Source: Spirochaetia bacterium (GTDB lineage Bacteria; Spirochaetota; Spirochaetia; UBA9216). Taken from it: a stretch of 64,000 bases of DNA. The notes below the pieces were generated by a model. It was not told where the DNA came from. It saw only the letters and a list, made by a program, of their open reading frames with translations, and ran no database searches. The DNA lies in contig OY776510.1 of assembly GCA_963675665.1 (NCBI GenBank), forward strand, positions 3,136,001-3,200,000. Reading direction: 5' to 3'. Made by a program: the position numbers and the translations under genes. Shown one piece after another: positions 54,269 through 58,061 of this stretch (within the stretch, counting starts at the first letter, position 1; the number at the start of each line of letters is the position of its first letter).

Positions 54269-54341
54269 GGTGGTGTAGCTCAGTTGGTAGAGCATTCGGC
54301 TCATATCCGAACGGTCAGGGGTTCAAGTCCCTTCGCCACTA
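54269..54341 (+). tRNA. tRNA-Met (CAT), elongator type; CCA not encoded
   Basis: Cloverleaf: GGTGGTG/CGCCACT acceptor, GCTC/GAGC D-arm, TTCGG-CTCATAT-CCGAA anticodon arm, GGTTCAAGTCC T-arm. Confidence 0.93.
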
Positions 54342-56609: not shown

Positions 56610-57167
56610 ATGAATAAGGAAATTGAATTAAAAGCACATGTTGACGAACCTGACTTGTTGAAAGACCGGCTATCAGGTATTTACGGCAGTCCTGTTTTGA
56701 TAAATAAAAATGATATTTACTATTTATACGATACGGATAAACAATCAGGGAAAGGCCAGCCTGTCAGATTACGTACGGAAAACGGAGTGAATACAGTAAC
56801 CGTAAAACGCAAATCCGTCTCAAACGGCATTGAGATTAATGATGAATTGGAATTTAATGTAGACAACGGAGAAAATTTTATAAAATTTCTACAATTGACC
56901 GGAGCCGGGAAATGGGTTGATAAAAGCAAGCACGGCTGGAAATTTACCGCCGATGTCGGAGCGGAGAAGGCTGTTATAGAGCTTTGCGAAGTCAGCCGGT
57001 TGGGATGGTTTATCGAAATTGAAATTGTTGTTGAGTCTCCGGACGACAAGCTGATTGCAACGGCTCAAGAGCAGATACTGGATATTTTGAAGATCGCAGG
57101 TATTTCCAGGGAAAAAATAGAACAGAGGTATTATTCCGATATGCTGCTTGAAAAAAACTGTCTTTGA
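56610..57167 (+). CDS. CYTH domain protein (class IV adenylate cyclase CyaB-like)
   Basis: EIELK, D.YY, VRLR, E...E.E, LG.F.EIE and terminal YSD motifs; start re-called to 56610. Confidence 0.9.
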   Translation: MNKEIELKAHVDEPDLLKDRLSGIYGSPVLINKNDIYYLYDTDKQSGKGQPVRLRTENGVNTVTVKRKSVSNGIEINDELEFNVDNGENFIKFLQLTGAGKWVDKSKHGWKFTADVGAEKAVIELCEVSRLGWFIEIEIVVESPDDKLIATAQEQILDILKIAGISREKIEQRYYSDMLLEKNCL

Positions 57168-57174
57168 TAAAGAC

Positions 57175-57297
57175 AGAAAAAAAGACCCGCCCGATTCAAC
57201 GAACCGGACGGGAAAAGGAGGTTGATTAAAAAAGGAGGTGTTTAGAAAACAGCAGGTAATGCAACCTGCTTCGCTGAAATGTATAAAACATTCAGCG
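57175..57297 (-). ncRNA. Candidate small RNA with two anti-SD motifs
   Basis: Promoter TTGAAC-16-TATATT, two hairpins, two ACCTCCTTTT motifs, intrinsic terminator. Confidence 0.45.
57177..57212 (-). terminator. Intrinsic terminator
   Basis: Minus strand CCCGTCCGGTTC-gtt-GAATCGGGCGGG-TC-T7. Confidence 0.75.
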
Positions 57298-57374
57298 TTC
57301 TCAATATATAAAAACTATAAAGGTGTTCAACGAACGACCTCTCAAGTGTTTACAGATAAAAATATATCAATTTT

Positions 57375-58061
57375 TTACCCTTTTATCAATATCCGAAGCA
57401 CATCTTTTGCCGATTTAGCGGTTAAAAACTCGTTAAAATCGACATTATTTCTTAAAAAGGTGTTAATTTTAGCGATTATGCGCAAATGTGCAATCTCGTT
57501 GTTTGTATATATAAGGAAAAATAATTTTACGGGTTTTCCGTCAATAGCTCCGAATTCAATACCGTCTTTACAGATACCGATTACTATTACAGGTCTGTGT
57601 GAAGTATTTTCCCTGGGATTCCTGATGTGGGGCATTGCTACGCCGTTGCCAAGCCCGGTGCTTATCATATTTTCACGTGACAGAAGTTTGATAACGAAAG
57701 CGTCATGATCATTAACAAGACCTGCCTCAACAAGGGGTTTTGACAGGGCTCTAAGAACTGATTCAGCATCACCGGGGGCCAGTTCAGTAAGAATGAATTC
57801 TTCACTTGTAAGTCTGGATAACGGAACGCTGTCTGGATCCATCTGCATCAGATTTGTTAAATCATCAGTATGGATTGTATTCATTTTATTTAAAATCCAG
57901 TCGTCTATAAGACCTTTATCGAATCGCCACTGACTTGCAATTTTAACGCAAGGTATTTCATCTTTCTGAATCATCCTTAAAACTGTTTTTTCGGCAACTT
58001 TTAGATAATTTGCAATTTCAGCAAGAGTAAGTAAATTACCGGATAATACCTTGTTTTCCAT
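57375..58061 (-). CDS. HTH_17 (excisionase-like) fused PTS EIIA (Fru/Ntr-type) protein
   Basis: LT..EIA.YLKV.EKTV.R......IP..KI...WRF; RE...STG.G.GVAMPH; F.A.DGKPV...F. Confidence 0.9.
   Translation of the reverse strand: MENKVLSGNLLTLAEIANYLKVAEKTVLRMIQKDEIPCVKIASQWRFDKGLIDDWILNKMNTIHTDDLTNLMQMDPDSVPLSRLTSEEFILTELAPGDAESVLRALSKPLVEAGLVNDHDAFVIKLLSRENMISTGLGNGVAMPHIRNPRENTSHRPVIVIGICKDGIEFGAIDGKPVKLFFLIYTNNEIAHLRIIAKINTFLRNNVDFNEFLTAKSAKDVLRILIKG

Follow-up and report, generated by a model that had tools for sequence, protein, structure and literature searches.

In alpha-rhizobia, the small RNAs (sRNAs) NfeR1/alpha-r14 ('cuckoo') and AbcR1/2 (alpha-r15) carry, according to passages of one published account, several identical and ultraconserved anti-Shine-Dalgarno (anti-SD) motifs that are left unpaired, with stems that differ between the RNAs (PMC10746234). 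The same passages describe these motifs as redundant seeds that occlude ribosome-binding sites, and NfeR1 itself as Hfq-independent and responsive to nitrogen status (PMC10746234). In Listeria monocytogenes, LhrC1-5 are presented, in sections of another paper, as multicopy sRNAs arranged in tandem in an intergenic location and induced by envelope stress and heme, which bear three redundant CU-rich sites with the motif UCCC, one of them in the terminator loop, and for which Hfq is dispensable; RsaE is named there among the UCCC-motif sRNAs (PMC4132741). The candidate sRNA that we describe here, from a spirochaete, has its closest known cases, as far as the working principle is concerned, in NfeR1/alpha-r14, AbcR and LhrC. 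The layouts nevertheless differ. In NfeR1 and AbcR, CCUCCUCCC sits in hairpin loops (three hairpins), whereas the element described here, which belongs to another phylum, carries ACCUCCUUUU twice in one linear unpaired stretch, and a search of positions 56900-57600 with ar14/ar15 (Rfam clan CL00108) gave no match at E-values up to 10. LhrC, a Firmicute RNA, combines the UCCC motif with multiple copies, whereas our element is single-copy, carries ACCUCCUUUU and had no Rfam match to LhrC; the LhrC layout is, on the other hand, exactly that of a second spirochaetal RNA, sRNA B, which is treated further below.

Other described systems share individual features with this locus. In RsaE/RoxS and other C-rich-seed sRNAs of Firmicutes, the seed targets the SD sequence and there is a link to central carbon metabolism; their C-rich motifs lie in loops, however, and they represent a different family, to which the element had no Rfam match. 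sRNAs embedded in 3'UTRs arise either from an internal promoter (DapZ, MicL) or by processing (CpxQ, SroC), and these enterobacterial examples are Hfq-dependent. The element occupies a DapZ/MicL-like position, namely behind a coding sequence whose terminator it shares and whose end overlaps a candidate promoter, but no Hfq was found. To our knowledge, hardly any regulatory RNAs of spirochaetes outside Borrelia have been described, and a literature search returned no paper combining spirochaetes, CCUCC and sRNA.

The window, that is, the whole stretch of 64,000 nucleotides that was analysed (positions 3136001-3200000 of contig C1 of genome G000, which measures 5.15 Mb), contains at 57168-57374 a convergent intergenic gap of 207 nt between a minus-strand gene for an HTH-PTS-EIIA protein (hereafter EIIA) and a plus-strand CYTH/CyaB gene (Table 1). 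When compared with NCBIfam, the EIIA protein matched fructose/PtsN-type EIIA models, every one of them under the cut-off, and orthologues of EIIA were found in all 11 genomes of the family. By converging on the EIIA gene, the cAMP-making CyaB gene adjoins a PTS-type regulator. The second terminator-like hairpin listed in Table 1 is present in G000 only, and aligning the seven genomic copies showed no conservation of it.

Table 1. Positions of the features discussed in the text (window numbering, unless given as genome:contig:positions)
Feature	Position	Strand	Basis or remark
CYTH/class IV adenylate cyclase (CyaB) gene, 206 aa	56547-57167	+	above NCBIfam cut-off
Second terminator-like hairpin and T-run (T7)	57151-57176	-	directly after the sRNA terminator, overlaps the cyaB stop
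Intrinsic terminator: 12-bp stem and 3-nt loop (57212-57186), then UCUUUUUUU (57185-57177)	57177-57212	-	terminator scan
Anti-SD motif 2	57222-57213	-	ACCTCCTTTT copy within the seed
Anti-SD motif 1	57239-57230	-	ACCTCCTTTT copy within the seed
Unpaired seed region GUUUUCUAAACACCUCCUUUUUUAAUCAACCUCCUUUU, 38 nt	57213-57250	-	fold of G000
SL2 hairpin, conserved CAGGU/ACCUG stem, variable loop	57251-57270	-	fold and covariation
SL1 hairpin	57272-57297	-	predicted in all 8 homologues
Originally predicted promoter TTGAAC-16-TATATT, inside SL0	57303-57330	-	9/12 match
SL0, 5' hairpin; loop carries GUUCGUUGAA	57307-57354	-	single-sequence folds
Invariant block TTTATCTGTAAA, predicted 5' end region of the RNA and start of SL0	57349-57360	-	invariant alignment columns
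Best-conserved candidate sRNA promoter: TTGATA (57389-84), 17-nt spacer ending in TG, TATATT (57366-61)	57361-57389	-	10/12 match with TG
Host gene, 228-aa HTH_17 (excisionase-type) and PTS EIIA type-2 protein	57375-58061	-	Pfam HTH_17 5.7e-12, PTS_EIIA_2 8.2e-32
Promoter-like site of the EIIA gene itself, TTGACT-16-TATAAT	58118-58091	-	consensus scan
Locus 2, intergenic region between a GGDEF gene and an Exo_endo_phos-family (phosphatase/nuclease) gene	G000:C1:4734109-4734510 (L142)		
sRNA B, terminator-bearing RNA	G000:C1:4734369-4734489 (L142:870-990)	-	outside the window

The 207-nt gap folds with -61.1 kcal/mol (z = -6.5), a stability that none of 200 shuffles equalled. Alignment figures given below refer to the seven genomic copies of the element, and single-sequence folds to eight homologues. 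SL1, SL2 and the terminator were recovered by folding and by a terminator scan exactly where the original prediction had placed them (57297-57272, 57270-57251 and 57212-57177). SL1 varies in sequence but keeps its pairing, with changes on both sides in four of its six modelled pairs. Among the cells of SL2, 98.2% are paired, with one compensatory pair as well as G.U variants, and in the terminator the proportion is 100%, including a compensatory change from C-G to U-A and an invariant U.G pair. The 5' hairpin SL0 is long in the genus of the window (g1) and short in the second genus carrying the element (g4); individual folding predicted it in six of the eight homologues, and in G004 and G005 the structure of lowest energy pairs the region otherwise. 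The covariation of SL0 is modest (81% of cells paired, three compensatory pairs, a score reached by 13 of 500 shuffles). Since GUUCGUUGAA is common to the SL0 loop and the terminator, SL0 in g1 looks like a partial copy of the terminator hairpin, and this shared sequence suggests that SL0 of g1 was derived from that hairpin by partial copying. Such an origin would explain the repeated 10-mer TTCAACGAAC, which had been noticed earlier both over a -35 hexamer and in the terminator and which indeed occurs at 57326-57335 and 57195-57204 (0.19 expected; 1 of 100 shuffles reaches two).

The seed holds the two anti-SD motifs, both of which carry ACCUCCUUUU. It is unpaired in six of the eight single-sequence folds, parts of it being paired in those of G004 and G005. 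The two motifs lie at the predicted positions and are the only copies of ACCTCCTTTT in the window (0.20 expected; none of 100 shuffles reaches two); the 5.15-Mb genome has 11 copies, and this locus provides its sole tandem of the form ACCTCCTT-N4-25-ACCTCCTT.

Conservation of the CCUCC motifs in relatives, on which the original prediction had been staked beforehand, was observed: motif 2 is invariant in all eight distinct homologues and motif 1 is intact in seven, CCUCC having become CCUCA in one species. Over its whole length the seed shows two changes across these homologues, namely one substitution (G003) and one U fewer at the 3' end (G004, G008 and G010). Between g1 and g4, the EIIA proteins are 63% identical and the seed together with the terminator 94%, whereas the hairpin sequences diverge. 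The covariation that had been proposed as a check was likewise found in the related genomes, with 98.4% of 188 cells paired over 25 modelled pairs, a compensatory change in six pairs and a covariation score that none of 500 shuffles reached; slid controls were 28-43% paired.

These data also bear on the strand. Seventeen G.U cells, including the invariant U.G of the terminator, fit the minus strand only, as they would be A.C on the plus strand, and the U-tract of the terminator exists on the minus strand only; the minus strand is fixed by these two features. The core is 117-129 nt long, with length differences that are not multiples of three, and a 156-aa plus-strand ORF (GTG start inside GGAGGTG) is present in G000 only, the frame being open for just 7-35 codons in the other seven homologues. 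We therefore consider the element to be non-coding, and this ORF was rejected as a gene for its lack of conservation. Among the hallmarks of a base-pairing sRNA, a conserved unpaired seed, a flanking structure that evolves by compensatory changes and an intrinsic terminator on the same strand are present. Judged from these comparisons, a structured minus-strand sRNA with an anti-SD seed at the tail of the EIIA gene is very likely real, and the G.U cells, the U-tract and the covariation bear out the structured minus-strand RNA, with its unpaired anti-SD region and own terminator, that had been predicted.

The element was found once per genome in seven of the 11 genomes of the order, which is represented here by 11 species genomes of one family, using a pattern search and R1, a covariance model built in this analysis (E-values of 1e-23 to 1e-27). 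Five of the six g1 genomes and both g4 genomes are carriers, both genera belonging to the Spirochaetia; in the sixth g1 genome (G002) a contig ends within the EIIA orthologue, so that the lack of a copy there carries no weight. Synteny with EIIA is kept in all seven carriers. In three other genera, the EIIA orthologues are 47% identical and directly followed by other genes, and the element is absent. When public metagenome contigs were searched with an 18-mer, 91 stretches matched. Of the 80 that were fetched, two were homologues, one sequence-identical to a known copy and one a new variant, and the other 78 were discarded as unrelated, being mostly ordinary ribosome-binding sites read backwards. 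Among 151 sampled genomes of the class, R1 gave a match at E <=1 in 27, with nothing convincing outside the family. The best match there (34.6 bits) reads as the reverse complement of an SD and ATG beside a terminator, and four others coincided with homologues of sRNA B; none of these was counted as a member. The comparison with Rfam that had been proposed together with the covariation check returned no family at gathering or permissive thresholds: Rfam 15 at gathering thresholds matched only a tRNA gene in the whole window (54269-54341, plus strand), and in a permissive scan of the region the best score was that of VqmR, with 17.5 bits against a threshold of 76. The element very probably constitutes a new family of sRNAs, of a type already known and confined to two genera.

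From the stop codon of EIIA up to the terminator of the sRNA no other terminator was found, the sole terminator-like site before 57212 being SL2, which lacks a clean U-tract, and this arrangement with a shared terminator downstream of EIIA is kept in all seven genomes. Transcription of EIIA must therefore continue across the element, which on these grounds is at least a part of the 3'UTR of EIIA; the origin from the EIIA 3'UTR that had been offered as one of two possibilities thus appears to be at least partly right. A wetland metatranscriptome contig from a ~93%-identical strain covers 57177-57900, i.e., EIIA through the element, and it stops at 57177, where the U-tract of the terminator ends. 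This gives no more than a weak hint, since a contig of this kind cannot show strand, ends or abundance, and the library may contain DNA. In a run of unrecorded kind (X7), a 184-nt contig corresponds exactly to 57194-57377, extending from the stop codon of EIIA as far as the terminator loop, with most of the flanking coding sequence left without cover, a pattern that could be due to chance at low depth and cannot show a transcript.

Besides this readthrough, the element is probably transcribed from a promoter of its own. The best-conserved candidate overlaps the EIIA stop codon (57377-75), with its -35 within the coding sequence, and is kept as TTG(A/C)T(A/T)-17-TGaTAT(ATT/TAA) in all seven genomes; promoter-like sites in general numbered six in 1.7 kb, compared with 5.0 expected from shuffles. 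A start near 57354, as implied by this candidate, would give an RNA of ~175 nt instead of the ~120 nt originally proposed. The promoter that had been put forward with the shorter length is present as described, but it reaches a match of only 9/12, lies inside SL0 and belongs to a segment missing in g4. Similar hexamers occur in five genomes of g1, in which it may still be functional and yield an RNA of ~120 nt.

An obligatory passage of EIIA transcripts through the element, with no terminator in between, is also what one would expect if the element acted purely in cis, as a 3'UTR whose hairpins and terminator stabilise the EIIA mRNA and whose anti-SD motifs fold onto the mRNA's own ribosome-binding site. 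It would then resemble icaR, for which pairing between 3'UTR and 5'UTR has reportedly been observed. We consider this unlikely. When 4589 start regions are ranked by their pairing with the seed, that of EIIA (AAAGGGGCUUUCAUG) comes only 970th, a promoter-like site and the invariant block stand just before SL0, and three genera have EIIA orthologues of 47% identity without the element; the synteny with EIIA in seven of seven genomes and the RNA-library contig, continuous from EIIA through the element, do agree with a cis-acting 3'UTR.

For the seed itself, pairing with GGAGG-rich sequences would be the natural reading. The 16S rRNA of G000 has a 3' tail ending in GGAUCACCUCCUUUCU, and motif 1, when extended by one base to CACCUCCUUU, is identical to 10 nt of this tail, nine of which are repeated in motif 2. 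SD sequences are in use in this genome, with GGAGG-N4-9-ATG occurring 1090 times, compared with 476 occurrences of the backwards pattern. Hfq was not found with the Pfam model in the genome, which is 96% complete, so that any pairing would be Hfq-independent; CsrA is present. A crude duplex scan of 4589 home-made predicted start regions gave no mRNA outlier, with a mean of -12.5 (sd 4.0) and a best value of -30.0, and the top matches rest on long interrupted pairings, RNAduplex allowing long interior loops.

The only extended complement of the seed in the genome was found on the plus strand of a second locus (locus 2; Table 1), in the putative leader of an Exo_endo_phos-family gene. Duplexes between the seed and the plus strand of this locus have predicted energies of -33.8 to -40.5 kcal/mol, with 26-36 predicted pairs, in eight of eight genomes, and shuffled controls averaged about -15, with a best value of -26.5. 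Locus 2 is conserved in all eight genomes examined from g1 and g4, and two units within it (G000:C1:4734190-4734360, plus strand) resemble the reverse complement of the seed. Upstream of these units, on the same strand, both hexamers of a TTGCAT-16-TA(G/A)AAT block are present in seven of the eight genomes, the row of G003 beginning inside the -35, and no space is left for a separate promoter of the Exo_endo_phos gene. From this promoter-like block and the gene order, which are the two grounds for plus-strand transcription at locus 2, we infer a long plus-strand leader. Such a leader could be bound by the sRNA, and it would run antisense through sRNA B. The units could alternatively be decayed minus-strand paralogues of the seed and not targets. 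The seed is more conserved than the complementary units; as it is invariant and the proposed sites vary, pairing with locus 2 alone cannot explain the constraint on the seed, and other partners must contribute to it. On the plus strand of the units we also noticed a frame of 14-16 codons, MF..(V/I)RRL.KKGCV, which is open in five of the six g1 genomes (with a GUG start in one), ends in a stop that varies between TGA, TAG and TAA, and has undergone two synonymous changes as well as a 6-nt insertion that preserves the frame; in g4 it begins with CUG, and the SD is directly adjacent to the start codon.

Considering the observed conservation, structure, strand and terminator, we lean, with moderate confidence, towards the element being a 3'UTR-embedded sRNA of ~175 or ~120 nt that would probably have its own promoter, accumulate as a discrete transcript and act in trans by pairing with GGAGG-rich RNA, including the locus-2 leader. 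The RNA would be made as the 3'UTR of EIIA, sharing the only terminator of that gene, and probably also from its own promoter. Its three hairpins would hold the 38-nt seed open and thereby expose the two anti-SD copies. The seed would then pair with GGAGG-rich RNA, which means ribosome-binding sites in general and, above all, the site of 26-36 pairs in the long putative leader of the Exo_endo_phos-family gene, and this pairing would block translation or trigger cleavage.

Some of the same features would also suit a decoy or sponge that titrates either a protein or a GGAGG-rich RNA (the locus-2 leader), or that mimics the 16S tail and so competes with the 30S subunit. The 16S anti-SD tail is represented twice, by ten bases of motif 1 and by nine of motif 2, a complement of 26-36 predicted pairs is conserved at locus 2, and the invariance of the seed exceeds the needs of any single variable target. 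We nonetheless hold a decoy to be quite unlikely: CsrA, which binds GGA, is present, but the GGA lies on the other strand, no protein partner is otherwise indicated, and the remainder of this explanation is purely inferential. Finally, we give very little credence to a function of the plus strand as an SD-rich element, a CsrA-binding GGA cluster or a seven-codon mini-ORF (TTG ATT AAA AAA GGA GGT GTT TAG), as this strand is without a U-tract and turns the 17 G.U cells into A.C, the TTG abuts GGAGG without a spacer, the changed motif 1 of one species converts the fifth codon of the mini-ORF into a stop and no conserved gene follows downstream on the plus strand, even though the mini-ORF frame is kept in seven of eight homologues, related locus-2 units keep a stop codon of varying identity and CsrA is present.

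The candidate sRNA at EIIA has a counterpart at locus 2, the terminator-bearing sRNA B, in which one copy of ACCUCCUUUU lies in a single-stranded stretch and another in the loop of the terminator. Matches to sRNA B were obtained by blastn in 88 of 301 sampled Spirochaetia genomes, mostly one per genome. Both of its motifs are invariant in 22 aligned sequences, and its stem has one compensatory pair; this alignment comprises seven of the eight family loci (the near-identical G010 copy was left out) and 15 regions from outside the family, where 20 had been fetched and 16 had matched a regular expression. At the 16 loci outside the family, the convergent neighbour was phosphoglucose isomerase in 10 and the upstream neighbour phosphofructokinase in 7, based on 22 ORFs that were picked by eye from these loci and searched with Pfam. 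In G000, phosphofructokinase is located upstream of sRNA B on the same strand. No Rfam family scored above threshold for sRNA B, and its assignment to ar15 was rejected, the score being 39.1 bits against a threshold of 40 in one of eight orthologous loci, with the true terminator misaligned.

In terms of importance, sRNA B may outweigh the EIIA-linked element. It is conceivable, albeit doubtful, that free-living spirochaetes possess a small network of sRNAs whose seeds copy the 16S anti-SD tail, with sRNA B as an ancient and the EIIA-3'UTR RNA as a younger, lineage-specific member; if this were true, both RNAs, together with the locus-2 leader that complements the younger one and runs antisense through the gene of the older, would be parts of a single circuit connecting sugar or PTS status with translation. 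Together with the class-wide sRNA B, the element suggests that anti-SD-seed sRNAs may be a common regulatory device in the phylum, like the CU-rich-seed sRNAs of Firmicutes and alpha-proteobacteria. The element itself represents a well-supported candidate for the bench, with a clear structure, a precise seed, a probable promoter and one specific candidate target, and the HTH-EIIA protein would be a linked candidate regulator of the sRNA.

A third locus of G000 (C1:1309814-1309974, minus strand; L157:515-675) combines two hairpins, an unpaired AAUCCUCCUUCAACCUCC and a terminator, and its fold has z = -7.1. It lies downstream of a gene that looks Hsp20-like when judged by eye. Blastn did not recover this locus from any of the 10 remaining family genomes, one of which gave a 27-nt partial match only.
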